64,000 bases of DNA from Candidatus Latescibacterota bacterium (GTDB lineage: Bacteria > Latescibacterota > UBA2968 > UBA8231). Of the stretch, positions 1 to 12,683 are shown one piece after another. The notes under the pieces were generated by a model. The model was not told where the DNA came from. It did no database searches and was given only the letters and a program-made list of their open reading frames with translations. Positions within the stretch are counted from its first letter, which is position 1; each line of letters starts with the position of its first letter. The position numbers and the translations under genes are program-made. The DNA is taken from contig CBDETY010000003.1 in assembly GCA_965243025.1 (NCBI GenBank), forward strand, positions 3,616,001 to 3,680,000, read 5' to 3'.

Positions 1-80
1 GCCGCGGCGTACAGGGGCGCTGCCGGCAGGAATGCGGCAAGGGCAGCCGCGCCGAAGACCAGCCCCTTTCTACCCTTCAT
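1..80 (-). CDS. 5' end of a secreted protein running off the left edge (possibly a TonB-dependent receptor; only the signal peptide is visible)
   Basis: Manual translation from ATG at 80 gives MKGRKGLVFGAAALAAFLPAAPLYAA, a Sec-type signal peptide. GAGGA lies 8 nt upstream and the start overlaps the end of the previous gene. Confidence 0.6.
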   Translation of the reverse strand, partial: MKGRKGLVFGAAALAAFLPAAPLYAA

Positions 81-585
81 CGTCGTGATCCTCGTCGGCG
101 TGGGAGTCCTCGGAACCCGGGCCCCCTTCTTCGACGTGGATCTCGATATCCTTCGAGACGAAATCGGCGTGGTCGTTGTGGTTCAGCTTGACCACCAGGG
201 TGGTCTGCCCTTCTTCCAGGCCTACGATGTGGAAGGACCAGTGGCCGTCTTCCTCGTGGTGGTCGACTTCGGCGATGCTCTCGTCGCCGATTTCCCAGTC
301 AAGGCCATATCCTTCGTCGGGGTCCGGGACGAACCGGTCGCCGTCCTCGGCGAGGAAGCGCACGGTCAGCAGGGGTGTTTCCAGGCCGTGCCCGACTTCG
401 ATTTCCCCCTCTACCTTGCCGCTTTCCTGGCGGACGAGCTCCTCGCCGCTGCTGAGTATGACCAGGCCGAACGCCTCGGCGTGGTCATCCCACTCATGGA
501 CGTCTACGGGGTTGTCGTCGTCGCCGCAGCCTGCCAAAAGCAGTAATGCGAGAAGGGATGATGCGGTTGAGATGATCCTGAGCAT
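70..585 (-). CDS. His/Asp/Glu-rich lipoprotein, putative metal-binding
   Basis: ATG at 585 with GGAGA RBS; lipobox LLLAGC; His/acidic motifs HEWDDHAE, DHHEEDGH, HNDHADF and SHADEDHDD. Confidence 0.8.
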   Translation of the reverse strand: MLRIISTASSLLALLLLAGCGDDDNPVDVHEWDDHAEAFGLVILSSGEELVRQESGKVEGEIEVGHGLETPLLTVRFLAEDGDRFVPDPDEGYGLDWEIGDESIAEVDHHEEDGHWSFHIVGLEEGQTTLVVKLNHNDHADFVSKDIEIHVEEGGPGSEDSHADEDHDDEG

Positions 586-816
586 GGTACGGTTCTCCGG
601 GTAGTGCCCCTGTGCGCAAGAGTCGGGCCCAGGGAACGATGTGGTGGATGTGAACCGGGCGGGGAAGGCTGAGGGCAAGGAGCCCTCCAGCCTGCTCCGA
701 CCGGAGCCGGGAGAACGCATCCGCACGCACCGATCCGGGTTGCCCGCCGAAGCGACGAGCCGAGAGCAAAGGCTCCCGGGACGGCGGGAAGGACTGCGTG
801 AAGCGGGTGCGGATGC
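586..816 (-). promoter_or_regulatory. Structured spacer with putative anti-Shine-Dalgarno (candidate translational attenuator)
   Basis: Perfect 10 bp inverted repeat 717-726/807-816; inner stem 743-749/782-788; hairpin 667-692; 710-716 is complementary to 592-598, which covers the RBS. Confidence 0.5.
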
Positions 817-1182
817 TCAGGTGCGGGGTGGGGCGCGGTTTGCGAAGGAGTAGCCGCGGAAGAAAAGCGGCAGAGGGACGGACCAGAGAGTCCTCTTGCG
901 GTCGCGGGAGCCGGGGCTCACAAAAAGGAGCGGAAGGACGACGACCACGAGCAGCACAAGGCTGCTCTCGATCATGCAGACCGGGCAGTTCTCCGGCTCG
1001 GCTTCCCCGTGCTCGTGAAACAGCTCGTGACCGAAGGGAAGCGCCAGGAAGAGTCCGATCAGCAGGGCTCCGAAGCAGAGCACCGCCAGATTCGCGGACC
1101 CCCGGCGGTCTCTTCGGACCTGGTTGGCGGAGAATACGAAAGGGAAAGCTCTGCAATCCATGCTGTTGCGGTCGTGTTTCAC
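817..1182 (-). CDS. DUF2946/CruR-like leader protein with CxxC and C-terminal RAPP motif
   Basis: Hydrophobic segment, HELFHEH, CPVC, second hydrophobic/Pro-rich segment, ends NRAPPRT*. GTG at 1182 overlaps the WD40 stop; alternative ATG at 1161. Confidence 0.75.
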   Translation of the reverse strand: MKHDRNSMDCRAFPFVFSANQVRRDRRGSANLAVLCFGALLIGLFLALPFGHELFHEHGEAEPENCPVCMIESSLVLLVVVVLPLLFVSPGSRDRKRTLWSVPLPLFFRGYSFANRAPPRT

Positions 1183-2225
1183 CTGTTGCTCACTCGCCAG
1201 ACCGTCGCGCCGCCCCGGGCGTCGAGGGCGGCAAGCAGGCGTCCATCCGGTCGCCAGTACAAGCCGCCGACAACATCTGCCACAAGCGCAGCTCCTGTCG
1301 GATCGCCCTGTCCATCGCGCCTGAGCGACCACACGACTACGCCGCCATCCCGGGCTCCCGAGGCCAGGCGCATCCCGCCGCGTGCGAAGGCGAGCGTTGT
1401 AACAGGTTGATCGTGAAGTTCCAGAACGCCGGGCCGCGTGCCTTCGGGACCCCTTCCCTGGAAGCTCCAGACCGTCACCGCCTCGCCTCCGCCGGTGGCC
1501 AGAAGGGTGCCGGTGTCATCGAAGGCCAGGGCCGACGGCTTGGCGGGATATCCCGACATCATCGAGTCCTGCTCCGTGGAGCGGCGCCAGAAGTGCACGG
1601 AGTTGTCCTGGCTGCCGCAGGCCACGATATCCCCGTCCGGACTCAGAACCATCGATACCAGGGATCCCTGCCACTCCAGCTTCTGGCGAGGCTCGCCAGT
1701 GGACGCGTCGAAGAACGTCACCCGACCGTAACAGGCCGTCGCCAGCTCCCCTGCGCCGGACCAGGCGATCGCGCTGACGGTGCTGGGATGATCGTCAGAT
1801 CGCCAGATTTCCACTCCATCCGCACCATACGCGCGAACCTGCCGGGCGCAGGAGGCTGCCAGCCATCGGCCGTCCGGCGACCACGCCACGTTTTCCACCC
1901 AACCGCTTCCGGCGTCGATAGCCTGGCTGACCTGACCCTCGGCGGCACTCCAGATCAGGACTCGCCCGTCCTGGCCGGCCGTGGCGAACGCGGTTCCGCC
2001 CGGGTGGATCGCCGCCGCGAGCACACCGCCTTCATGAACCTCCCGCCGTTCCCAGGCGGTCGCGCCGGACTTGCCGTCGAACGCGTAGACGCCACCGGCG
2101 GCGTCACCGACCATCAGCGCCTCACCGCGCAGGCTCCAACCGCCGGCGATGGCGTAGTCGCCGACCTCGGCGGACCAGCCCCGGCGAAGAACGCCCCTCG
2201 GGCTGTCGACATTCAAACCAGACAT
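1179..2225 (-). CDS. WD40-repeat beta-propeller protein
   Basis: Repeated blades such as AIHPGGTAFATAGQDGRVLIW, AWSPDGRWLA, LSPDGDIVACGSQDNSVHFW; overlaps the upstream COG0523 gene. Confidence 0.9.
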   Translation of the reverse strand: MSGLNVDSPRGVLRRGWSAEVGDYAIAGGWSLRGEALMVGDAAGGVYAFDGKSGATAWERREVHEGGVLAAAIHPGGTAFATAGQDGRVLIWSAAEGQVSQAIDAGSGWVENVAWSPDGRWLAASCARQVRAYGADGVEIWRSDDHPSTVSAIAWSGAGELATACYGRVTFFDASTGEPRQKLEWQGSLVSMVLSPDGDIVACGSQDNSVHFWRRSTEQDSMMSGYPAKPSALAFDDTGTLLATGGGEAVTVWSFQGRGPEGTRPGVLELHDQPVTTLAFARGGMRLASGARDGGVVVWSLRRDGQGDPTGAALVADVVGGLYWRPDGRLLAALDARGGATVWRVSNR

Positions 2226-3559
2226 GCCTCGAATCTCAGCCGCATGCCCTGCTCATCGAGGTTGCGGCCGATGAAGACGAGCTGATTGCGGCGGGGCGCG
2301 TCCCCCCATGGACGGTCCGGTTGTCCGTCGAAGAGCATGTGAACCCCCTGGAAGACGAAGCGGCGCGACTCGCCCGCGAGGCTGATGAAGCCCTTCATTC
2401 GGAAGATGTCCACCCCGCGTTCACGGAGCAGTTCGCCAAGCCACTCGTTCAGCCTGTCGGGATCGACGTCCCCCTCCCTCTCGATCGCGATCGAGCCCAC
2501 TTCGTCGTCGTGCTCGTGCTGGGCGACCCAGGTGCGCTCGACCTCCTGCCCGATTGCCGCTCCTTCCGCGTTCGTCAGTCGGAGATCGAATTCTTCGGCG
2601 GTGTGCTGGGCGTAAAGGCCGACCCGCACCTGCTCATCGACCTCCAGGAAGAACGACTTGCGCCCCGGGGAATCGAGCGGGAGGTTCACATGCTTTCCGA
2701 CGGGAATCTCTTCCCCCGGGCGAACGAGCTCCGCAGGTTCGGCGTACCGCCGCACGCACCACTCCGCACCCTCGCGGAGGGCAGCGTCATCCGTGCCCTG
2801 GCCGGGGACGACGACCAGCGACATCGCCGGATCAGGTCCATCGGCGAGGCTGAGCTCGCAGCGGCCGCTATCGAGCGAATAGACTCCGGTCCACTCGAAC
2901 GGGTATTCCGGCTCGAGGAAGGTGGGACGACGGTCGAGCGCCTGGTCCAGGTCGAAGGCGCCGAGGTTGAGTACCGTGTCGACGGAGACGTTCGCCCGCT
3001 CGCTGCGCACGACTTGCGCCATCCGGTTCATGTCCCGGAGCCGGGTTTCGAGCCTGTCGAGCGCCTCGCCGTCGACGAGGTCGGTCTTGTTGAGCACCAG
3101 GACGTCGGCGAAGGCGATCTGCTCGGTGCTTTCGTCGCTGCGGCCGAGCTGTTGCTCGATGTGGGCTGCATCGACGAGCGTGACGATCCCGTCGAGCGAG
3201 AACTCCGCGTGAATCTCGTCGTCCATGAAGAAGGTCTGAGCGACCGGACCGGGATCGGCGAGCCCCGTGGTCTCCACCAGCACGTAGTCGAACTTGTCGC
3301 GGCGCTTCATGAGATTGCCGAGCACGCGAATCAGGTCTCCGCGCACCGTGCAGCAGATGCAGCCGTTCGACATCTCGAAGATCTCTTCGTCAGCGTCGAT
3401 GACGAGCGCCTGATCGATGCCGACCTCCCCGTACTCGTTCTCGATCACGGCAATGCGCTTGCCGTGCTCCTCGCTCAGGATCCGGTTGAGCAGGGTCGTC
3501 TTGCCGGAGCCGAGGAAGCCGGTGAGGATGGAAACAGGAACTTTTCGCGGCGTATTCAT
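2213..3559 (-). CDS. COG0523 (CobW-like) G3E metallochaperone GTPase with central insertion
   Basis: GFLGSGKTT Walker A, GCICC metal motif, ETTG, NKTD, C-terminal R-x-KG...LVFIG. Confidence 0.95.
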   Translation of the reverse strand: MNTPRKVPVSILTGFLGSGKTTLLNRILSEEHGKRIAVIENEYGEVGIDQALVIDADEEIFEMSNGCICCTVRGDLIRVLGNLMKRRDKFDYVLVETTGLADPGPVAQTFFMDDEIHAEFSLDGIVTLVDAAHIEQQLGRSDESTEQIAFADVLVLNKTDLVDGEALDRLETRLRDMNRMAQVVRSERANVSVDTVLNLGAFDLDQALDRRPTFLEPEYPFEWTGVYSLDSGRCELSLADGPDPAMSLVVVPGQGTDDAALREGAEWCVRRYAEPAELVRPGEEIPVGKHVNLPLDSPGRKSFFLEVDEQVRVGLYAQHTAEEFDLRLTNAEGAAIGQEVERTWVAQHEHDDEVGSIAIEREGDVDPDRLNEWLGELLRERGVDIFRMKGFISLAGESRRFVFQGVHMLFDGQPDRPWGDAPRRNQLVFIGRNLDEQGMRLRFEACLV

Positions 3560-3868
3560 CTAGTTCTCCCGGGTGAATGGTGCGAAGGCGGCAGTCCGGA
3601 CGTCGAACCCCCACGCCTTGCATACCTGGACCAGGTCCCTGTGGTCAACGGCGTCCATGGGTTTGTGCAGCTTGTGCTGAAGCTGTGGCGCATCGGGCCG
3701 AAGCAGGCCAATCACGGTCTCGATGGGCGCACAGCCTTCTTCGAGACATGCCAGCTCGGTGACTGTAACCGTCGTGCCGTCGGGAAGGCTCAGCGCGGCC
3801 CGCAATGCCTCCTTGATTTGTCGAACCCGTTCGCGGTTCGGGCGACGCGGTGATGTGTTGATCAACAT
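3560..3868 (-). CDS. Small conserved hypothetical protein with ELACxxxGCxPxET motif
   Basis: ATG at 3868 with AGAGGGA RBS; ends immediately before the GTPase start. Confidence 0.7.
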   Translation of the reverse strand: MLINTSPRRPNRERVRQIKEALRAALSLPDGTTVTVTELACLEEGCAPIETVIGLLRPDAPQLQHKLHKPMDAVDHRDLVQVCKAWGFDVRTAAFAPFTREN

Positions 3869-4058: not shown

Positions 4059-4086
4059 ATGATAATTGATTTTCAATTATCGTCAA
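4059..4086 (-). promoter_or_regulatory. Putative sigma70 promoter for the leftward operon
   Basis: Minus strand reads TTGACG-16 nt-TATCAT, overlapping the palindromic operator. Confidence 0.5.
4061..4081. promoter_or_regulatory. Fur/Zur-type operator, copy 1
   Basis: Perfect 9-3-9 palindrome GATAATTGA-TTT-TCAATTATC between divergent metal-homeostasis operons. Confidence 0.8.
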
Positions 4087-4157: not shown

Positions 4158-4559
4158 ATGCTGAAATCCAGGTCGCCAGCCCTGCAGCTCGGCGCCGACG
4201 TTGTGGGCGCCGTCGGATCGTCACTGTGCGCCCTGCACTGCGCCATCCTCCCCCTGAGCCTGGTGCTGGGCACCACCTTGCCTCTCACGCTGATGGGCGA
4301 GGAGATCTTCCATCTCGGCCTGCTGTGCCTGGTTCTCCCGGCCGGAATCGTGGCGTTCAGCCTGGGTTGCCGTGAGCACCGCGATGTCTGGGTGCTGGCC
4401 CTGGGGGCCATCGGCATGCTTGGGATCCTGCTGGCCGCCACGGTGTTGCACGATGTCCTCGGCGAGTCCGGTGAGCGCGCAGCGACGCTCGCGGCGGCCG
4501 TCGTCCTGATCTCCGCCCACGCCCGCAACTACCGCCTGTGCCGCGCAAAGCCGACTTGA
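4158..4559 (+). CDS. MerC-domain membrane protein
   Basis: N-terminal SSLCALHC, four hydrophobic segments, GCREH and AHARNYRLC. Confidence 0.8.
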   Translation: MLKSRSPALQLGADVVGAVGSSLCALHCAILPLSLVLGTTLPLTLMGEEIFHLGLLCLVLPAGIVAFSLGCREHRDVWVLALGAIGMLGILLAATVLHDVLGESGERAATLAAAVVLISAHARNYRLCRAKPT

Positions 4560-4577
4560 CTGCGGCCCGCCCGGGGG

Positions 4578-5309
4578 ATGAGCCGCATGAGCCGTAGATC
4601 TCTGCCGGTCGTGGCCTCCCTGTTGATGCTGACCGGCGTGACGGCAGCTCGACAACCCGCACACGTACACGGGATCGCAACCCTCAACCTGGCAATGGAA
4701 GGGGACGAACTCGAGATCGAGTTCGCGTCACCGGCCGGCAATATCGTCGGCTTCGAGCACGAAGCCGTCACCGCAGCCGAGCGTCGAGCGATCCGGGATG
4801 CGATCGAACAGCTGAGGAAGGGCAACGAGCTGTTCGACCTGCCGCCTGCGGCCAGCTGCAGTCTGCATGTCGTCGCAGTGGAGCACGGCCACGGAGAAGA
4901 AGAGAAGAGCGAAGATGGTCATGGACACGACGCTGAGCACGATCACCGCGACGAGCACGGACACGCTGAAGAGGAAGGGGACGGCACGCACATCCGACAT
5001 GAAGCCACACGGGTCGGCGGCGTCGAGGACGGGCATGCCGGCGAGGGGGGGGAGGGCGCCCACTCCGGAGACGAAGCCGGACACGATGACGGCGACGAGC
5101 ACGGACATGCCGGCGAGGATGGGGACACTCACTCCGAGTTCCATGCACGCTATCGCTGCGAGTGCAATGGATCAGCCATCGAGACGATCGGGGTTCGTCT
5201 CTTCGAGCACTGGCCGCGCATCGAGGAGATCCGTGTGCAGGCACTGACGCCGGCCGGCCAGTTCGGTGGCGTTGCCAAGGCAGATGACCCGGTGATCAGG
5301 CTGAGATAG
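4578..5309 (+). CDS. zrgA: DUF2796 / ZrgA-like periplasmic zinc-binding protein
   Basis: Signal peptide, AHVHG, SPAxNIVGFEH, long His/acidic loop, HSEFHARYRCEC. Confidence 0.85.
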   Translation: MSRMSRRSLPVVASLLMLTGVTAARQPAHVHGIATLNLAMEGDELEIEFASPAGNIVGFEHEAVTAAERRAIRDAIEQLRKGNELFDLPPAASCSLHVVAVEHGHGEEEKSEDGHGHDAEHDHRDEHGHAEEEGDGTHIRHEATRVGGVEDGHAGEGGEGAHSGDEAGHDDGDEHGHAGEDGDTHSEFHARYRCECNGSAIETIGVRLFEHWPRIEEIRVQALTPAGQFGGVAKADDPVIRLR

Positions 5310-5330
5310 CTGCGCGAGCCGACGCCCGAC

Positions 5331-6032
5331 GTGAACGAAGAGCTCATCGAGATCGAGGACCTGCGCTTCGGTTGGCCCGGCGCCGCGCCTCTGCTCGGTT
5401 GCGACCGCTTCCTCCTGCGACGAGGCGAACACCTGTATGTCCGCGGCCCTTCAGGCAGCGGCAAGTCGACGCTGTTGAACCTGTTGGCGGGAGTACTGAC
5501 GCCGGACTCGGGCCGCCTGTCGCTGATGCGCCAGGATACGGGCTCGCTGGCCGCGGCGGCTCGCGACCGGCTTCGCGCCGACCACATCGGGTTCATCTTC
5601 CAGCAATTCAACCTGGTCCCCTACCTCAACCTGGCCGAGAACGTCGTCCTGCCCTGCCACTTCTCCCGGCGCCGAGCCACGCGAGCGGCCGAGGCGCACG
5701 GTGGCGTGAAGGCTGCCGCGCGGTTGCTGCTGCAGCGCCTGTTCGTCGAGGAGGGACTGGATCCGGCGGCACCGGTATCGAGGCTCTCCGTCGGCCAGCA
5801 GCAGCGCGTGGCCGCGGCGCGGGCCCTGATTGGCGATCCCGAGATCGTGATCGCGGACGAACCGACCTCGGCACTCGACTTCGATGGGCGAGCACGCTTC
5901 ATCGAGCTGCTGTTCGAGCAGGTTCAGGCGTCGCGGGCGACGCTGGTCTTCGTCAGTCACGATCCAACCCTCGCGGCGTGCTTCGACCGTACAGTCGACA
6001 TGGACGACTTCCGAGCGGAGGCTCGCGCGTGA
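5331..6032 (+). CDS. ABC transporter ATP-binding protein (ZrgB-like, LolD/MacB type)
   Basis: GPSGSGKST, LSVGQQQRV, ADEPTSALD, VSHD. Confidence 0.92.
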   Translation: MNEELIEIEDLRFGWPGAAPLLGCDRFLLRRGEHLYVRGPSGSGKSTLLNLLAGVLTPDSGRLSLMRQDTGSLAAAARDRLRADHIGFIFQQFNLVPYLNLAENVVLPCHFSRRRATRAAEAHGGVKAAARLLLQRLFVEEGLDPAAPVSRLSVGQQQRVAAARALIGDPEIVIADEPTSALDFDGRARFIELLFEQVQASRATLVFVSHDPTLAACFDRTVDMDDFRAEARA

Positions 6033-7270
6033 ACGTGCCGCGTCTGGCCTGGAAGAGTCTGCTGAACCGGCGCGATACCGCGTCGCTGACCATCCTGACG
6101 ATCGCCGTCAGCGTGGCGCTGCTGCTCGGCGTCGAGAAGGTCCGATCCCACGCGCGCGTGAGCTTCGCCAACACCGTGTCCGGTACCGACCTGATCGTCG
6201 GCGCTCGCAGCGGTTCGGTGCAGCTGTTGCTCTACTCGGTGTTTCGCATCGGCAACGCCACCAGCAATGTCGCCTGGTCCAGCTATGCGGACATCTCGAC
6301 CTGGCCAGGGGTCCGCTGGGCCATCCCGATCTCGCTGGGCGATTCGCACCGCGGCTACCGCGTCATGGGCACGTCTACCGGCTACTTCGAGCACTTCCGC
6401 TACGCCGGCAAGCGTCGTCTCGGCTTTTCGGAGGGTGGGCCCTTCGCCGAGACGCTGGACGCCGTCCTCGGCGCGGAAGTGGCGCGCAAGCTCGGATACC
6501 GGCTGGGCGATGAACTGGTCGTGACCCACGGCATCGGGACAGAGGGCTTCGGCGACCACGACAACCACCCGTTCAAGGTCACCGGCATCCTGGCGCCGAC
6601 GGGCACGCCCGTGGACCGCACCGTTCACGTCGGCCTCGCGGGGATCGAAGCCATGCACAGGAACTGGAACCGCGTCGAGACCGATCTCCGGCGCCCTCGG
6701 GGCCAGGACCTGACCCCGCGCCAGATCACCGCCTTCCTGCTCGGCCTCGACAACCGACTCGCCGCCTTCAAGCTGCAGCGGGACATCAATCGGTATGGCG
6801 CCGAACCCTTGCTCGCCATCTTTCCGGGCGTGGCGCTGCAGGAACTCTGGGACCTGATGCGCGTTGGCGAACAGGCGCTGCGGGTCGTCTCGATCCTCGT
6901 CGCGGCCGCGGCGCTGGCGGGTCTGCTTGCGGTCTCCCTGGCCGGACTCAACGAACGCCGGCGCGAAATGGCGGTGCTGCGCTCGGTCGGCGCCGGCTAT
7001 CGCCACGTCATGGAGTTGCTCATCGCGGAGTCGGCGCTGTTGACACTGCTCGGTATCGCAATGGGAGTAGCGATGCAGAACCTGGCGCTGCGGGCCTTGC
7101 AGCCCTGGATCGTCGAGCGCTTCGGCCTGCTCCTGCCGGTCGGCTTGCCCACTGCGGGCGAATGGCGGCTGCTAGGCGGTCTGATGACCGCCGGCCTGCT
7201 CGCCGGCCTGGTGCCTGCCTGGCGCTGTTACCGGAACTCGCTCGCCGACGGACTGTCGACTCGTCTGTGA
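6029..7270 (+). CDS. FtsX/MacB-type ABC permease (ZrgC-like)
   Basis: GTG at 6029 overlaps the ATPase stop; GTDLIVGARSG, PISLGDSHRGYRV, ERRREMAVLRSVGA. Confidence 0.9.
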   Translation: MNVPRLAWKSLLNRRDTASLTILTIAVSVALLLGVEKVRSHARVSFANTVSGTDLIVGARSGSVQLLLYSVFRIGNATSNVAWSSYADISTWPGVRWAIPISLGDSHRGYRVMGTSTGYFEHFRYAGKRRLGFSEGGPFAETLDAVLGAEVARKLGYRLGDELVVTHGIGTEGFGDHDNHPFKVTGILAPTGTPVDRTVHVGLAGIEAMHRNWNRVETDLRRPRGQDLTPRQITAFLLGLDNRLAAFKLQRDINRYGAEPLLAIFPGVALQELWDLMRVGEQALRVVSILVAAAALAGLLAVSLAGLNERRREMAVLRSVGAGYRHVMELLIAESALLTLLGIAMGVAMQNLALRALQPWIVERFGLLLPVGLPTAGEWRLLGGLMTAGLLAGLVPAWRCYRNSLADGLSTRL

Positions 7271-7311
7271 GGGCGAGAGACTCTCAGTCGCAGATCAGGA
7301 GGACCACGCCC

Positions 7312-7857
7312 ATGTCTCGCCAACCATTGCTCATGTTGCTGCTCGTCACCAGCGCAGCCGCCGCGGACTCGCCGCGCGAGATCCTGTGGGACCAGCTCGT
7401 TCCCGAGGGCTGGAATCCCTACGCCCTGTTCGATGAACTCAGCGACGAGGAGTACGCCGCACTCAGCGACGAAGAGTACTTCGCGTTGCAGGAGAAAGCC
7501 CGGGAAATGCTCGACAAAGCACCCGTGGTAAAGGAGCTCGATGGCCAGACGGTCAGGATTCCGGGTTTCGTATTGCCCCTGGAATATAAGGGAACACGGA
7601 TCCGCGAATTCCTGTTGATGCCCTTTCTCGGTGCCTGTCTCCACACCCCGCCGCCGCCGGCCAACCAGATCATCCGCGGCAGCCTCGCGCAAGCCCATGA
7701 CCTGCGGGAGATGTGGCGCCCGGTCTGGATCTCCGGCCGCCTGAAGACGGGTCACGCTACCGGCAAGCTTGGTGAGGACGGTTACGACTCCATCACCAAT
7801 GTGAGTTTTGGCTACTCGATGGACGTCGAGTCGATCGAGCCCTACAGGCAGCGGTAG
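7312..7857 (+). CDS. DUF3299 (ZrgD-like) protein
   Basis: ATG 7312 with AGGAGG RBS; signal peptide; LDGQTVRIPGFVLPL; GACLHTPPPPANQI. Confidence 0.88.
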   Translation: MSRQPLLMLLLVTSAAAADSPREILWDQLVPEGWNPYALFDELSDEEYAALSDEEYFALQEKAREMLDKAPVVKELDGQTVRIPGFVLPLEYKGTRIREFLLMPFLGACLHTPPPPANQIIRGSLAQAHDLREMWRPVWISGRLKTGHATGKLGEDGYDSITNVSFGYSMDVESIEPYRQR

Positions 7858-7887
7858 CTCGGTGAGGGGTACCCCGGGAGCGAATCA

Positions 7888-8985
7888 ATGGCTGAAGATC
7901 AAAACTTGAAAGAACCGATTCCAGTAACAATCATCAGCGGCTTTTTAGGTGCGGGCAAAACTTCCCTGCTCAACCACATTCTCAACGCCGACCACGGATT
8001 GCGCGTGGCAGTGCTGGTCAACGACTTCGGAGAAATCAACATTGACGCCGAGTTGGTCTCCGGGGTCTCCGGGGAATCCACCATCAACCTTTCCAACGGG
8101 TGTATCTGTTGCTCGATTCGCGATGACCTGCTCGAAGCAACGGTTCAGTTGATTCAAGACCCGAACCCGCCGGAGTATATCGTCGTTGAAACGAGCGGCG
8201 TATCTGACCCGGAGGCGGTTTCATTGACCTTCATGGCTATCGAATTGCAGTCTCGGACGCGAGTGGACAGTGTGCTGACCGTGGTCGATGCGGAGCAGAT
8301 TTACCAGGTGAACGAGAAGCATCGCAGACTCGCCGTAGACCAGATCGCCATGGCAGACATTGTGGTGTTGAACAAGCTCGACCTGGTCAATGATGAAAAG
8401 CGGGAGGAATTGGCGGACTTTGTCACCGATCTCGTTCCGAGAGCGCGTATCCTCGAAGCTACATATGGCAAGGTTCCGCTCGATCTGGTACTCGGTTCAG
8501 GGACATACGACCTCCACCGCTTTTCGGGGAAGTCAGGCCTGGACGTTCACGTCCATGCGGACGGCGAGGCGCATGAACACGACCACTCTCACGGGAATCA
8601 TCACGAACCCCATACCGACCATACGCTTGTTTTCAACACGTGGTGCTATACGACCGACAAACCTCTGTCACGTGGGGCCGTTCTTGATGCGATGAGAACC
8701 CTGCCTGCGACTATCTACCGCGCCAAAGGGTTTGTTTACCTCGCCGACAATCCCGGTCGGAAGGGAATCGTCCACGTTGCCGGCCTGCGGGCGCGTCTGA
8801 TCACTGGTGAGCCGTGGGGCGACGATAAACCGGGGACACAGTTGGTTTTTATCGGTGAGGAAGGTGGAATAGACGCTTGCGAGTTGCAATCGCGCTTTGA
8901 TGCGTGCCAAACGGAAAATGATACTCATCAGGATGCCGCGTTGGATGCCGCTTTTGAATTGTTTCGGCAGCTTACAGCGAAATAG
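7888..8985 (+). CDS. Second COG0523 metallochaperone GTPase, His-rich
   Basis: GFLGAGKT, GCICC, ETSG, NKLD, His-rich insert HVHADGEAHEHDHSHGNHH, RAKG. Confidence 0.95.
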   Translation: MAEDQNLKEPIPVTIISGFLGAGKTSLLNHILNADHGLRVAVLVNDFGEINIDAELVSGVSGESTINLSNGCICCSIRDDLLEATVQLIQDPNPPEYIVVETSGVSDPEAVSLTFMAIELQSRTRVDSVLTVVDAEQIYQVNEKHRRLAVDQIAMADIVVLNKLDLVNDEKREELADFVTDLVPRARILEATYGKVPLDLVLGSGTYDLHRFSGKSGLDVHVHADGEAHEHDHSHGNHHEPHTDHTLVFNTWCYTTDKPLSRGAVLDAMRTLPATIYRAKGFVYLADNPGRKGIVHVAGLRARLITGEPWGDDKPGTQLVFIGEEGGIDACELQSRFDACQTENDTHQDAALDAAFELFRQLTAK

Positions 8986-9111: not shown

Positions 9112-9924
9112 CTATTCGACCGAACCGGGCTCGGAGAAACCGTTGCGCAGCGCCCTTGCCAGGAAAACGATCCCGAGGATGAGCAGCGGTATGCTGAGGA
9201 TCTGGCCGACCCCGAGGGCAAGGTCGGCGCCATACGCCGCTTGTCGTTCCTTGACGAATTCGATCAGAAACCGAAACCCGAAGGCGGAGACGAGGAAGAG
9301 GCCGAACAAAAAACCGCGCGGCGTTCGGGCTTCGAGCTGGATGTAGAATCGATACAACCCCACGAAGAGCGTTCCGTAGGCGATCGACTCGTAGAGCTGT
9401 GCGGGATGTCTCGGTGTATCGTCGATCCGGTCGAAGATGACGGCCCAGGGGACATCGGTGGGGACTCCGAGAATCTCCGAGTTAAAGAAATTACCGAGTC
9501 GGATCAGCAGTCCGGCGAGGGCGACGACAATGACCATCCGATCCAGCAGCCACAGATACGGTTGATCGGGGCGGCGCCGGGCGTAGATGAACAGCGCTGT
9601 CAAAATGCCGACCGCGCCGCCGTGGCTGGCGAGCCCGCCTTCCCACACCATCAGCATCTTGTGCGGATTGTCGAGGTAGTATCCCGGGTCGTAGAAGAGG
9701 CAATGCCCCAGGCGCGCGCCGGCGATCGTGCCGGCCATCATGTACGTCAGGAGCGTTGCGAGATCTGATTCCGGCTTCCCCTCTCGCTTGAAGACGGAAC
9801 GGATGATGTTGTATCCGATGAAGAACGAGAGCGCGAAGAGGATGCCGTAGTACCTGATCGTGAACGGACCGATCTGGAAAAGGACCGGGTCGACATTCCA
9901 GATGATCGCGTCAGATTGAGGCAA
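9112..9924 (-). CDS. lgt: Prolipoprotein diacylglyceryl transferase
   Basis: IRYYG, GARLGHCLFY, WEGGLASHGG, RLGNFFNSE, RHPAQLYE, RFLIEF. Confidence 0.95.
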   Translation of the reverse strand: MPQSDAIIWNVDPVLFQIGPFTIRYYGILFALSFFIGYNIIRSVFKREGKPESDLATLLTYMMAGTIAGARLGHCLFYDPGYYLDNPHKMLMVWEGGLASHGGAVGILTALFIYARRRPDQPYLWLLDRMVIVVALAGLLIRLGNFFNSEILGVPTDVPWAVIFDRIDDTPRHPAQLYESIAYGTLFVGLYRFYIQLEARTPRGFLFGLFLVSAFGFRFLIEFVKERQAAYGADLALGVGQILSIPLLILGIVFLARALRNGFSEPGSVE

Positions 9925-10055: not shown

Positions 10056-10070
10056 ACTTGCTTGATTAAT

Positions 10071-10091
10071 GATAATGAACTATCAATTATC
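10071..10091. promoter_or_regulatory. Fur/Zur-type operator, copy 2
   Basis: GATAATGAA-CTA-TCAATTATC; right half identical to copy 1 and left half shares GATAAT; directly upstream of the Zn ABC transporter. Confidence 0.75.
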
Positions 10092-10092
10092 C

Positions 10093-10890
10093 ATGCAAAA
10101 TGCATCTGCCCGGGCTGGGCTGACAGCGATGGCGAATCCAATGCTCCTTTCGGCAACTGGACTCTCGCTCGGCTATGGGACCGAGACCGTCGCTGAAGAC
10201 GTCGCCTTCAACCTTGCGCCCGGCGACGTGCTCGCTGTTGTCGGTCACAACGGATCGGGAAAATCGACCCTGATCAAAACAGTGTCGGGCGCCTTGCCGC
10301 CGCTTGCCGGCACGCTCAACTGGCCCGTCGGGCGGCCACCGACAATCGCTTATCTGGGCCAGAGGACCGAGTTCGACAGCCGCTTTCCCATCCGGGTCCG
10401 CGACATGGCTGCAATGGGTGCCTGGCCCAACCTCGGGTTTCTCGGCCGCATCGACTCTGAGTGCCGGGCCCGGATCCGGTGCGCGCTCGAGCGCACAGGC
10501 ACCGCCGGGATCGCCGACATGCCCCTGCACAAACTGTCCTCGGGTCAGCTGCAACGGGCGCTGTTTGCCCGGACCATGGTTCAGGATGCGCCGCTGATCC
10601 TGTTGGATGAGCCGTTTACGGCCGTCGACCAGACAACGGAAGCGGCTCTGCTGACCCTGATCGATCAATGGGCCGCGGAAGGACGCACCATCATCCTCGT
10701 TCTGCACGACCTTTCCGCCGTTCTACAACATTGCACCTCAGCGCTTCTCCTGGGAGATGGCCGCGCGTTTTTCGGTGCCCCGAAAGAAACGCTTACGCCC
10801 GACAACCTGGTCGTTCACCGGTACCTGTCGCAAAGTCAGGCCGCCTGGATCGAAACCATGTACTCGCAATCGAAAGCAGACGATGTTTGA
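10093..10890 (+). CDS. Zn/Mn ABC transporter ATP-binding protein (ZnuC/AztA-like)
   Basis: GHNGSGKST, LSSGQLQR, LLDEPF, VLHD; start at 10093 or 10129. Confidence 0.9.
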   Translation: MQNASARAGLTAMANPMLLSATGLSLGYGTETVAEDVAFNLAPGDVLAVVGHNGSGKSTLIKTVSGALPPLAGTLNWPVGRPPTIAYLGQRTEFDSRFPIRVRDMAAMGAWPNLGFLGRIDSECRARIRCALERTGTAGIADMPLHKLSSGQLQRALFARTMVQDAPLILLDEPFTAVDQTTEAALLTLIDQWAAEGRTIILVLHDLSAVLQHCTSALLLGDGRAFFGAPKETLTPDNLVVHRYLSQSQAAWIETMYSQSKADDV

Positions 10891-11761
10891 GTGGCTCGAC
10901 TACGCGTTCATGGTCCGGGCACTGACCGCGACGACGGTGCTGAGTTTCTCCGTCGCCCCGGTCGGAGCATTCCTGGTGCTCAGGCGCCTGTCGCTCGCCG
11001 GGGAGGCGATGGCTCACGCCATTGTGCCGGGAATCGTCATCGCTTTCGTGATTTCCGGTCTGTCGGTGGGATCCATGATCGTTGGCGGGTTGACCGCCGG
11101 TATCACCGTCGCCGCCCTGACCAGCCTGCTCGCCCGTATGACAATCCTCCGCGAGGATGCGAGTCTGGCGTCGCTCTACCTGATCGCCCTTGCTCTGGGC
11201 ATCTTCATCCTGTCCGCCGCCGGCTCGGCGGTGCCGCTGAAGAGTTTCCTGTTCGGTTCCATCCTCGGCATCGACGACGAAAGCCTCATTCTGATCGGGA
11301 CGACGGCCACGATCACATTGGTGAGCTTCGCGCTGATCCTCAGGCCGCTGATCATCAATACAATCGATCCCGTCTTCCATGAGAGCCAGTCCAGGCACCC
11401 GGGCATCGTGGCTCACTGGTTCATGTTTCTGGTGGTGCTCAATCTGTTGGGGGCCTTCAAGGCGCTCGGCACGCTGATGGCGGTCGGCTTGATGATCCTG
11501 CCGGCGACGGCGGCACGCTACTGGGTCTCGACAATCACCGGCTACGTGATCGTGACCTTCGTATTCGCGCTGCTGAGCTGCTGGATCGGGTTGATCACTT
11601 CGTTCTATTTGCAGGACGTGCCTTCAGGTCCTGCAATCGTACTGGTTGCGGCGGTCTTTTTCTTCTTGAGCCTGATCTTCGCCCCGCAGGGATTTCATGC
11701 CGGCGCGCGCCTCAACCCGTACCGCCGCCAACCCCTGACCACCGATCAAAACTCAACGTAG
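10883..11761 (+). CDS. Zn/Mn ABC transporter permease (ZnuB/AztB-like)
   Basis: ATG 10883; LRRLSLAGEAMAHAIVPG, LFGSILG, PSGPAIV. Confidence 0.92.
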   Translation: MFEWLDYAFMVRALTATTVLSFSVAPVGAFLVLRRLSLAGEAMAHAIVPGIVIAFVISGLSVGSMIVGGLTAGITVAALTSLLARMTILREDASLASLYLIALALGIFILSAAGSAVPLKSFLFGSILGIDDESLILIGTTATITLVSFALILRPLIINTIDPVFHESQSRHPGIVAHWFMFLVVLNLLGAFKALGTLMAVGLMILPATAARYWVSTITGYVIVTFVFALLSCWIGLITSFYLQDVPSGPAIVLVAAVFFFLSLIFAPQGFHAGARLNPYRRQPLTTDQNST

Positions 11762-11774
11762 GAGCAAGAAGCGC

Positions 11775-12683
11775 ATGCAAAGACTATTCAGCCCACTGCT
11801 GGCAGCGGGCCTGGTCCTGGCCGGAATCCCCGCGGCCGCCCAGGACAGGATCAAGGTCGTCGCCAGCTTCTCCATCCTCGGCGATATGGTGCGCCAGGTC
11901 ACCGGCGATCTGGCCGAGGTGACAACCATTGTCGGCCCGGACGCCGATGCGCACGTTTACACCCCCAACGCGGCCGACGCCAAAGCAGTTGCAAACGCCG
12001 AGATTATCTTTGTCAACGGTCTGGGCTTCGAGACCTGGTCGCAAACCCTGATCGAGACGTCCGGTACCAAGGCCGAAGTATCCGTCGCGACGGATGGCAT
12101 AACGCCTTTGAAGGTTGACGGCGAAATCGACCCGCATGCCTGGAATTCGCTCACGAACGGCATGAAGTATGTCGCCAGGATTGCGGACAGCATGGCCGAA
12201 ATCGATCCGGAAAACGCGGCGGCCTACAAGGCCAACGCCCGCGCCTGCACCGCCAGACTGAAGGAACTGCACAACCGCGCGCTCGACCAACTCAAAAGAC
12301 TGCCCGCCGGCCAGCGCACGGTCGTGACCGCCCACGACGCCTTCGGGTACCTGGAGGCAGCCTATGGGCTCACGTTTCTGGCCCCGGTCGGGATCGACAC
12401 CGATGCCGAGCCGTCGGCACGGGACCTCGCCAGGCTGATCGATCACCTCAAGCAGGCCGGCGCCGGCGCGCTGTTCGTCGAGAACATCACCAGTCCGTCC
12501 CTGGTTCAGCAGATCGCGCGCGAAACCGGAATTCAGATCGGTGGCCGGCTGTTCTCCGACGCGCTCTCGGAACGCGGCGGCCCGGCGACCAGCTACGAGA
12601 AGATGTTCGAGCACAACCTGGGAACGCTGATTCAAGCGCTCAGCCAGCAATCGCAACTGGCCACAAGAAAAACGGCGTTCTGA
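11775..12683 (+). CDS. Cluster A-I metal ABC substrate-binding protein (ZnuA/AztC-like)
   Basis: Signal peptide; DAHVY, DPHAW, HDAFGY, LFSDAL metal-ligand motifs. Confidence 0.93.
   Translation: MQRLFSPLLAAGLVLAGIPAAAQDRIKVVASFSILGDMVRQVTGDLAEVTTIVGPDADAHVYTPNAADAKAVANAEIIFVNGLGFETWSQTLIETSGTKAEVSVATDGITPLKVDGEIDPHAWNSLTNGMKYVARIADSMAEIDPENAAAYKANARACTARLKELHNRALDQLKRLPAGQRTVVTAHDAFGYLEAAYGLTFLAPVGIDTDAEPSARDLARLIDHLKQAGAGALFVENITSPSLVQQIARETGIQIGGRLFSDALSERGGPATSYEKMFEHNLGTLIQALSQQSQLATRKTAF

Follow-up and report, generated by a model that had tools for sequence, protein, structure and literature searches.

Two metal-sensing leader peptides of the DUF2946 type have been described, CruR (Bp2923) of Bordetella pertussis and CutF of Rhodobacter capsulatus, and both sense copper (PMC9426467; 10.1101/2025.02.05.636593). 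The hallmarks given for the CruR family are an export signal, a CXXC motif, a spacer of 45 residues that is conserved to within 1-2, an RAPP sequence three residues from the end and, beyond a long gap, a TonB-dependent receptor as the next gene. The output of CruR is reported to be Rho-dependent termination in the intergenic region, which is relieved by the stalled ribosome, and complementation in trans is reported to have failed (PMC9426467). Here we analyse a leader open reading frame (ORF) at positions 817-1182 of a 64,000-nucleotide stretch of Candidatus Latescibacterota DNA (G000:C3:3616001-3680000, in the following "the window"); all genes of the finding lie on its minus strand. The sequence of the leader and its likeness to the described systems suggest that it is probably a cis-acting, metal-sensing translation-arrest leader of the CruR/CutF kind, working by the mechanism proposed below.

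ApdA/ApdP and SecM are likewise small peptides targeted to the membrane that have the RAPP (or RAGP) core close to the C-terminus; these differ from the present leader in that they are described as monitors of Sec/YidC activity, have secretion machinery encoded downstream and are devoid of metal ligands (PMC10951233). A survey reported that bacterial proteomes strongly avoid RAPP and RGPP other than close to the C-termini of small exported regulatory peptides, and that in Gram-negative phyla small ORFs with these motifs are over-represented ahead of TonB-dependent receptors (PMC12992588). The survey, which also covers such ORFs ahead of metal genes and includes Streptomyces lividans SLIV_16130 and SLIV_18480, reports signal peptides in almost all of the cases linked to receptors and refers to copper; zinc, CobW and Gemmatimonad are absent from its main text. 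No paper combining zinc, an arrest peptide and a TonB-dependent receptor was found by full-text search; the supplementary gene lists of PMC12992588 and PMC9426467 may include members of the family described here. The literature found for Gemmatimonadota, Zur, TonB-dependent receptors and COG0523 consisted of ordinary Zur-regulon papers only.

The leader, its parts and the genes that follow it are located as listed (aa, amino acids; AF2, AlphaFold2).

817..1182, minus strand: leader ORF, 121 aa, a two-helix membrane peptide with the end RAPP-R-T-stop (from the translation)
976..1029, minus strand: predicted periplasmic sensor loop, consisting of HELFHEH, an acidic linker and CPVC (from the translation)
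1029..1009, minus strand: HELFHEH, residues 52-58, in the sensor loop
987..976, minus strand: CPVC, residues 66-69, in the sensor loop
913..969, minus strand: second hydrophobic helix, about residues 72-90 (from the translation and the AF2 model)
826..837, minus strand: RAPP (R116, A117, P118, P119), the predicted stall site, followed by R, T and the stop codon TGA (819..817)
586..816, minus strand: structured intergenic region of 231 nt between leader and lipoprotein
70..585, minus strand: His/Asp/Glu-rich lipoprotein, 171 aa, with the lipobox LLAGC (from the translation)
1..80, minus strand: start of a TonB-dependent receptor, ATG at 80, continuing past the left edge (from the neighbouring DNA)

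The GTG start codon of the leader at 1182 overlaps the stop codon of the preceding gene, which encodes a WD40 protein, as GTGA; ATG at 1161 is an alternative start. The N-terminus is basic (RRDRRG) and is followed by a first hydrophobic segment at about residues 31-50, and the spacer between CPVC and RAPP is exactly 46 residues long (70-115). An earlier note on this DNA had described the same succession of a hydrophobic segment, HELFHEH, CPVC, 46 aa and RAPP, with which the minus-strand translation agrees exactly; the second hydrophobic segment had been missed there and counted within the spacer. The uncharged run of helix 2 ends 26 residues before the last Pro, a distance found in 29 of the 43 family members (see below), and its hydrophobic core ends about 30 residues before that Pro. 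The charge pattern along the peptide is basic-acidic-basic (RRDRRG / HELFHEHGEAEPEN / RDRKR), which fits an N-in, C-in hairpin with the His/Cys loop outside, a topology derived from charge and hydrophobicity alone. The AF2 model has helices at residues 26-56 and 67-88 and a disordered tail (mean pLDDT 68). The basic N-terminus and the hydrophobic helix after it (26-56 in the AF2 model) may be a counterpart of the export signal of the CruR family. The general layout of RAPP-type arrest peptides is present, with an R[AG]PP core near the C-terminus of a small membrane-targeted peptide that is encoded upstream of a candidate target gene. By likeness to the ApdA/ApdP structures, P118 is predicted to occupy the P site and P119 the A site of the stalled ribosome (PMC10951233).

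An R[AG]PP sequence at most 5 residues from the stop occurs in 87 of the 56,895 stop-to-stop frames of at least 60 aa in this genome of 65% GC, and because most of these frames are Arg/Pro-rich junk, the RAPP motif alone proves nothing. What places the leader beyond chance is the conservation of R[AG]PP and of the spacing in relatives. A word-indexed search yielded 34 homologs at 65-100% identity and an exhaustive profile search 24 representatives at 50% clustering; from all loci collected, 43 distinct members were extracted, and the family counts refer to these. Among the 168 genomes of the phylum that were searched, the leader family is present in 43 (the window genome and 42 others) and is confined to one taxonomic family, occurring in 42 of 75 genomes there and in 0 of 92 elsewhere. 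Some of the homologs are labelled as Gemmatimonadetes or Latescibacteria metagenome-assembled genomes by their sources.

R[AG]PP was found in all 43 members (25 RGPP, 18 RAPP). It is followed by 2 residues in 37 members, by 3 in 4 and by 7 in 2, and the spacer from Cxx? to the Arg measures 46 residues in 37 members, 45 in 4, 44 in 1 and 48 in 1. RxPP is encoded by 17 different codon strings, and therefore the constraint acts on the peptide. HxxxH precedes the Cys in 42 of the 43 members. At 23-49% identity P49, H52, C66, P118 and P119 are invariant and H56, P67 and R116 nearly so, H56 being kept in at least 90% of the relatives; the segment from helix 2 to RAPP is poorly conserved in distant members. 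The first Cys of CxxC is invariant; the fourth place is taken by C in 18 members, by Y in 10, by H in 9, by R in 4 and by G and D in one each. As read from these sequences, the conserved ligand set is HxxxH plus one Cys. The earlier note had staked its proposal on the conservation of both RAPP and CxxC. The former is borne out, with R[AG]PP in 43/43 and a Cys-to-RAPP spacing of 45-46 in 41/43; by the note's own refutation test the latter is not, the second Cys being kept in just 18/43.

In one locus (L058, 9954-10079, minus strand), a 1-base deletion after the RGPP codons takes the frame past the usual TAG to an end 7 codons later, with the downstream RNA elements unchanged, which amounts to a natural test of how much the distance to the stop matters. 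The most divergent of the genomes examined has a second small ORF just upstream of the leader (L059, 708-1014, plus strand); it has a hydrophobic segment, CAVC, a 42-residue spacer and RSPP 2 residues before the stop, matches the family profile at E = 0.008 and may be another leader in tandem, belonging to a separate subtype.

Scored against Pfam DUF2946 (PF11162), the window leader reached 15.0 bits (E = 0.044), the cut-off being 23.7. Between the Cys motif and RAPP the two align collinearly, residues 57-119 matching positions 55-117 of the 117-position model. Three of 25 wider members match DUF2946 at E ≤ 1, the best at 0.0025, and no match over the cut-off was found in the 168 genomes of the phylum, in which the best family copies scored 22.4 bits. 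An Atlas feature search placed a DUF2946 cluster at rank 20 (score 0.91). The equation with DUF2946 and CruR proposed in the earlier note had to be relaxed in two respects: no copy in the 168 genomes of the phylum passes the cut-off of the profile, and of the CruR-like layout the CXXC of the window copy, the spacing, RAPP, the long gap and the TonB-dependent receptor hold, whereas the conservation of CXXC and the copper context do not. We treat the leader family as a divergent relative that appears to work like CruR and CutF, not as a formal member of DUF2946.

The downstream genes travel with the leader. Synteny was followed in 22 fetched loci and in seven more divergent ones, 29 in all. A lipoprotein gene follows the leader in 22/22 fetched and 5/7 divergent loci (27/29). 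A receptor 57-93% identical to that of the window lies downstream in 19/22 fetched loci, and all seven divergent loci have a receptor (26/29); it is missing from two loci of one genus and at one contig end, and it is about 5 kb away in two loci. The gap between leader and lipoprotein measures 112-293 nt in 26 loci. In the genome, the gene that runs off the left edge of the window encodes a 740-aa TonB-dependent receptor with CarboxypepD_reg, Plug and barrel domains, and its ATG at 80 overlaps the lipoprotein stop codon. The downstream pair of the earlier note is thus right in its His/acidic lipoprotein, and its "secreted protein" proved to be this receptor once the left edge was extended, which makes the likeness to CruR closer than the note had it. 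Two successive leader-lipoprotein pairs precede the receptor in one genus, with HQLFH...CPAY in one of the leaders and HQLCH...CPAC in the other. The mid-operon position given for the leader in the earlier note holds for the window, and the tandem pairs show that such a position is not unique to it.

The 231-nt gap folds better than shuffled sequences (z = -3.1), and the consensus fold of 6 related loci has three helices, which in the window are formed by the elements listed (SD, Shine-Dalgarno sequence).

813..821, minus strand: leader-end strand CCUGAGCAU, comprising the final two bases of codon 121, the stop codon and a further 4 nt
585..577, minus strand: AUGCUCAGG, the lipoprotein start codon and the next two codons, pairing with the leader-end strand
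816..807 and 726..717, minus strand: strands GCAUCCGCAC and GUGCGGAUGC of hairpin P1 in its longer, 10-bp version
716..710, minus strand: anti-SD GUUCUCC, just after P1, pairing with the SD
598..592, minus strand: SD GGAGAAC, pairing with the anti-SD

The consensus P1 (CCGCAC:GUGCGG) starts just after the GCAU of the outer helix. The 10-bp P1 would take this GCAU from the outer helix, so that the two helices compete for four bases. The same three-way junction is made of other letters and in a shifted register in the tandem-leader genus, where GGUGCUAGU around the TAG stop pairs with ACUAGCACC between SD and AUG, P1 is GCAUCCACGC:GCGUGGAUGC and CUCCA pairs with UGGAG. A third genus, with a GUG start codon, has the helix CACGUUUCAU:AUGAAACGUG, and one locus has the compensated variant GGCGCUA:UAGCGCC with GCACCCGCGC:GCGCGGGUGC as P1. 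Of the 43 distinct post-stop regions, 35 have P1 right after the stop, and 31 have it with UCUCC behind it. When 20 distinct sequences were aligned by fitting to the model, both partners had changed in 10 of 38 pairs as compared with 3.2 in shuffles (0 of 500 shuffles reach this number), and 94.3% of the cells are paired as compared with 31-48% when the partners are slid. A covariance model of the second sequence class did not recover the first class; L039 alone matched it (E = 0.92).

The effect of a ribosome parked at the leader end was modelled by holding 17 nt from the first Pro codon single-stranded, corresponding to a ribosome with RAP in the P site (PMC10951233). The predicted energy needed to open the start region (-15 to +6) has a mean of 13.0 kcal/mol in the free RNA and of 8.8 kcal/mol in the occluded one; the decrease exceeds 1 kcal/mol in 23 of 25 distinct loci, and a drop is also predicted in all three further loci. 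For the locus of the window, the predicted cost of opening the lipoprotein start region falls from 15.0 to about 10 kcal/mol when the leader end is occluded, and other 17-nt segments have little effect. When the occluded segment was slid along the RNA in 4 loci, the leader-end windows had by far the largest effect, only the anti-SD window in one locus coming close, and a few other windows in one short locus being intermediate in effect. These models make start-site unmasking a fairly probable output of the leader.

The following mechanism would account for these features. The leader would insert co-translationally as an N-in/C-in helical hairpin whose acidic loop, with HxxxH(x9)CxxC, faces the periplasm. 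With the ribosome at R-A-P | P, peptide-bond formation would stall two sense codons before the stop, and the parked ribosome would cover the last leader codons and the stop, which otherwise would be paired with the lipoprotein start region in a helix that stacks on the post-stop hairpin and on the anti-SD:SD helix. Stalling would thereby unmask the lipoprotein start and, via the overlapping stop and start codons, permit translation of the receptor; the stalled ribosome may also shield a C-rich tract from Rho. Metal bound to the His/Cys loop would alter the folding or insertion of helix 2, and the changed pulling force would release the stall. For an uptake system the likely logic is that metal present in the envelope releases the stall and the genes are off. 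Release of a stall by force on the nascent chain and unmasking of a downstream start site are textbook outputs of arrest peptides. From the sequence evidence, we are fairly confident that the ORF is a real arrest-type leader acting in cis.

Which metal would be sensed was judged from the genes around the leader, and upstream of it the putative operon has the following elements.

4059..4086, minus strand: sigma-70-like promoter (TTGACG, 16 nt, TATCAT), with the palindrome GATAATTGAtttTCAATTATC in its spacer
4061-4081, between -35 and -10: GATAATTGAtttTCAATTATC, a perfect 9-3-9 palindrome, putative Zur operator
3560..3868, minus strand: small ORF, 102 aa, first in the putative operon (from the ORF list)
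2213..3559, minus strand: COG0523 (CobW-type) GTPase, 448 aa, with the motif GCICC (family model match)
1179..2225, minus strand: WD40 beta-propeller protein, 348 aa, without a signal peptide (Pfam)

The only promoter-like site of the strand carries the palindrome between its -35 and -10 elements. At ≤3 mismatches the palindrome has 2 sites in the 6.8-Mb genome, as compared with 0 for a reversed-pattern control; the second copy (10071..10091, 2 mismatches) lies directly upstream of znuC-znuB-znuA (Pfam ABC_tran, ABC-3, ZnuA). A Fur-family palindrome that overlaps a promoter and is common to znuCBA is what is expected of a Zur regulon, and the sequence is taken as a putative operator. The earlier note had placed the leader under a Fur/Zur-type operator and coupled it to a COG0523-WD40 pair, and both statements agree with the window: the Fur/Zur-like palindrome overlaps the strand's only promoter-like site, and the leader lies directly 3' of the pair. 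No Pfam or NCBIfam family matched the 102-aa ORF or a 154-aa ORF. With the nesting under a Zur-type operator, production of the receptor would need both low cytoplasmic zinc, for transcription, and low envelope metal, for translation.

The COG0523 operon shares the palindrome region with a divergent zinc-uptake island at 4158-8985.

4158-4559: MerC-like membrane protein
4578-5309: His-rich ZrgA-family protein
5331-6032: ABC ATPase
ending at 7270: FtsX/MacB-type permease
7312-7857: DUF3299 protein
7888-8985: second COG0523 protein, with a His-rich insert

COG0523, usually with WD40, was found in the fetched flanks of 9 of the 29 loci; these loci belong to four genera, and the gene lies ahead of the leader or behind the receptor. 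The HELFHEH...CPVC loop, with three His and two Cys, follows WD40 in 4/4 genomes that have it, the CPVR/CPAR form in 0/3. Near the module, the palindrome was found (≤4 mismatches) in only one of 22 other loci, L040, 2.7 kb upstream of COG0523. One genome whose module is now upstream of COG0523-WD40 has a truncated leader remnant after WD40 (L050, 5101-5313, minus strand; protein P0038) with the first ~45 residues intact and unrelated sequence thereafter, which looks like a trace of the window's arrangement.

The window genome has a second module 2.35 Mb away (G000:C3:1263580-1266890; L005, 4580-7888, minus strand), with 89% DNA identity. Most of the differences fall within the sensor loop, where HELFHEH is changed to HQLFHEV and CPVC to CPVR and which is one residue shorter. 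This module heads its own operon beside a divergent gene. Because it lacks the palindrome and COG0523, the device appears to be independent of the zinc context.

On the gene neighbourhood, zinc is the metal that we would name first, at a level of confidence that comes near to probable and stays below it; copper is possible and rather doubtful, and another metal, or several, a little more doubtful than copper.

Several results weigh against a zinc-linked leader that unmasks a start site. Ligand sets of two His and one Cys bind copper as well as zinc. The DUF2946 match is below the Pfam threshold, and the leader model has low confidence (pLDDT 68), the topology resting on charge and hydrophobicity. 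Significant covariation of the RNA comes from a model-fitted alignment and from related sequences. Within a class the helices barely vary and covariation is not significant (97.3% of cells paired vs 96.9% in shuffles, 1 compensated pair), and the covariation term of the six-locus consensus fold is unfavourable (+3.37). The energy of the leader-end:start-region duplex beats dinucleotide shuffles (p ≤ 0.05) in just 12 of 25 loci, the window locus having p = 0.12, no opening is predicted for the loci L039 and L041, and even in the "stalled" state about 9 kcal/mol would be needed to open the start region. In 20 of the 29 loci, the fetched flank has no zinc gene, and the 89%-identical paralogous module in the window genome has neither the palindrome nor COG0523 nor the second Cys. 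Finally, the characterised relatives, CruR and CutF, sense copper (PMC9426467; 10.1101/2025.02.05.636593).

Some of these points are shared by the alternative in which the leader senses copper like CruR and CutF and the adjacent zinc genes are mere neighbours, a reading that we regard as conceivable, at clearly less than even likelihood. The set of His, His and Cys is a classic one for copper, and Met70 in close relatives adds to it. The only characterised relatives are copper sensors, the module stands without a nearby zinc gene in the 20 loci mentioned, and an RND efflux system of CusB/OEP type adjoins it in two genomes (L052 and L056). Set against this, none of the copper genes of the cruR operon (CopC, PCuAC, Sco, YcnI, PepSY_TM) was found among 41 neighbouring proteins in 12 loci, and the receptor matches ZnuD better than it does the copper receptor model (see below). 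The linkage to COG0523 recurs in four genera, and the Zur-type box is common to znuCBA only.

A second alternative retains the arrest leader and differs in the output: the stalled ribosome would block a C-rich loading site and so prevent Rho-dependent termination, with the RNA helices incidental or secondary. CruR works through Rho, and the gap is long as in CruR (PMC9426467). In the 60 nt that follow the stop, C is frequent and G scarce, with a mean (C-G)/(C+G) of +0.23 over 25 gaps, of which none is below 0 and 15 are at least 0.2; in sense-strand coding windows the value is +0.007, with 11% at or above 0.2. In the window gap, these 60 nt have 28 C and 14 G. Much of the C-rich tract is, however, predicted to be paired in P1 and would be a poor Rho substrate, and a pure Rho model leaves unexplained the complementarity between stop region and start region, which exists in three sequence versions. 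A scan for intrinsic terminators gave 3 sites as compared with 2.3 expected, which is not above chance; a weak one is in the gap at 790..773. Rho termination and start-site unmasking are not mutually exclusive, and as the sole output the former appears unlikely.

It is quite improbable, in our estimate, that the ORF encodes a stable small inner-membrane protein, acting as a metal relay or signal transducer with the lipoprotein and the receptor, and that RAPPR is a structural or interaction motif. Two predicted transmembrane helices and a conserved loop of ligands are in keeping with a functional membrane protein, and the leader does travel with the lipoprotein (27/29 loci) and the receptor (26/29). 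Such a protein would nevertheless carry a motif that is avoided in proteomes outside the C-termini of small regulatory peptides (PMC12992588), at distances to the stop (2 residues in 37/43) and to the Cys motif (46 residues in 37/43) that are fixed to the residue, after a segment downstream of helix 2 that is poorly conserved in distant members. Pairing between the stop region of the mRNA and the next gene's start region also speaks against it. A chance ORF in GC-rich DNA has a negligible likelihood: overlapping long ORFs are common in the window and RAPP-like endings occur in 87 genome frames, but protein conservation down to 23% identity, synonymous codon variation, conserved synteny and the counts in the 43-member family contradict it.

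Returning to the arrest leader with start-site unmasking, its likeness to CruR lies in a small exported peptide with a Cys motif, a spacer of 46 instead of 45 residues, RAPP 2-3 residues from the stop and a long gap before the genes of a metal-uptake TonB-dependent receptor, and in both cases the stalled state would be the one in which the downstream genes are on (predicted here). In contrast to CruR, the present family is below the Pfam threshold, its second Cys is variable, an HxxxH motif is added and nearly universal, a second transmembrane helix fills part of the spacer, the genes nearby are zinc rather than copper genes, and the phylum is different. The window leader lies mid-operon and its relatives are elsewhere arranged in tandem, whereas the CruR family is described as the first gene together with copper-homeostasis genes; the predicted output is start-site unmasking rather than, or as well as, Rho termination. 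CutF, as described, resembles the leader in being a nascent peptide of the DUF2946 type that detects periplasmic metal while it is exported co-translationally and whose stall melts the mRNA structure masking the ribosome-binding site of the next gene (10.1101/2025.02.05.636593). It differs by a cleaved signal peptide, CxxxC and an EF-P-dependent PPP stall, where the present family has R[AG]PP and a predicted two-helix hairpin (10.1101/2025.02.05.636593). In CutF copper causes the stall and induces a detoxifying oxidase; here uptake genes follow and the polarity is probably the opposite.

Copper leaders of the DUF2946 type (CruR, CutF), the RAPP stall mechanism and RAPP/RGPP ORFs before TonB-dependent receptors are already known. 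New are the two-helix hairpin with HxxxH and a variable fourth ligand, the linkage to zinc-starvation genes, the nesting under a Zur-type operator, the tandem leaders, the re-invented RNA junction between stop region and start region, and the cargo proteins. The metal-sensing arrest peptides known to date are confined to copper and to two studied cases, and a zinc-linked branch would extend the principle. Its ligand set differs and varies naturally, a membrane-insertion step is predicted at a force-relevant distance from the stall site, and the generality of metal sensing by nascent chains would become directly testable. The design is compact, consisting of a sensor loop, a fixed 46-residue ruler, RAPP and an RNA three-way junction, and the pairing sequences, rewritten at least 3 times in nature, are ready-made compensatory variants. 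Speculatively, the leader could be a nascent-chain sensor of a metal other than copper, the first of its kind, in which periplasmic zinc would be read by an inverted zinc-finger-like HxxxH...CxxC that bridges two helices, the reading being set as stall time and forming a translational AND-gate beneath Zur. The variable fourth ligand (C, H, Y, R) and the tandem leaders would then provide a set of sensors for different metals or thresholds, and each sensor would gate its own copy of a new class of His-rich surface lipoprotein that feeds a ZnuD-like receptor. We offer this extended version tentatively, as the less probable part of the proposal.

The lipoprotein is predicted by AF2 to be an Ig-like beta-sandwich (mean pLDDT 82). 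More than 100 homologs were found; H35, H110, H119, H136 and H139 are invariant and the tail is rich in His/Asp/Glu. No Pfam or NCBIfam family matched it, and a fold search of the PDB returned generic Ig-like or S-layer domains only and no known metal-binding protein. The zinc-binding exoprotein ZepA, thought to pass zinc to an outer-membrane receptor, is described as having an Ig-like sandwich, a His cluster and a His/acidic region, in which it resembles the predicted five-His lipoprotein; it differs in having two domains and a PEP-CTERM signal and in not being a lipoprotein, and the likeness is one of description (PMC10957091). For the receptor, ZnuD (NF038289) was the best of 28 NCBIfam models and its best curated match, with 138 bits as compared with a cut-off of 950; heme receptors scored 129 and 120 bits and the copper receptor OprC 58 bits, all far below their cut-offs. 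The five-His Ig-like lipoprotein and the ZnuD-like receptor are candidate parts of an outer-membrane zinc acquisition system in a poorly studied phylum.

The COG0523-WD40 pair (1179-3559, minus strand) is conserved across several genera with 84-92% protein identity and a stop/start overlap, and it was found in metatranscriptome contigs of relatives from three studies. Four metatranscriptome runs contained 5-14% of the sampled words; their contigs, from relatives about 90% identical, cover COG0523-WD40, with thin or absent cover of leader and lipoprotein, the relatives diverging at about position 1195. The gene for prolipoprotein diacylglyceryl transferase (Lgt) is located at 9112-9924 on the minus strand, between the second COG0523 gene and the znuCBA operon (10069-12683), an odd placement next to genes for metal-binding lipoproteins. 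In three single-module genomes, the divergent neighbour of the module encodes an ArsP_1-family permease (L055, 10283-11686; L057, 8299-9591; L058, 10357-11616).

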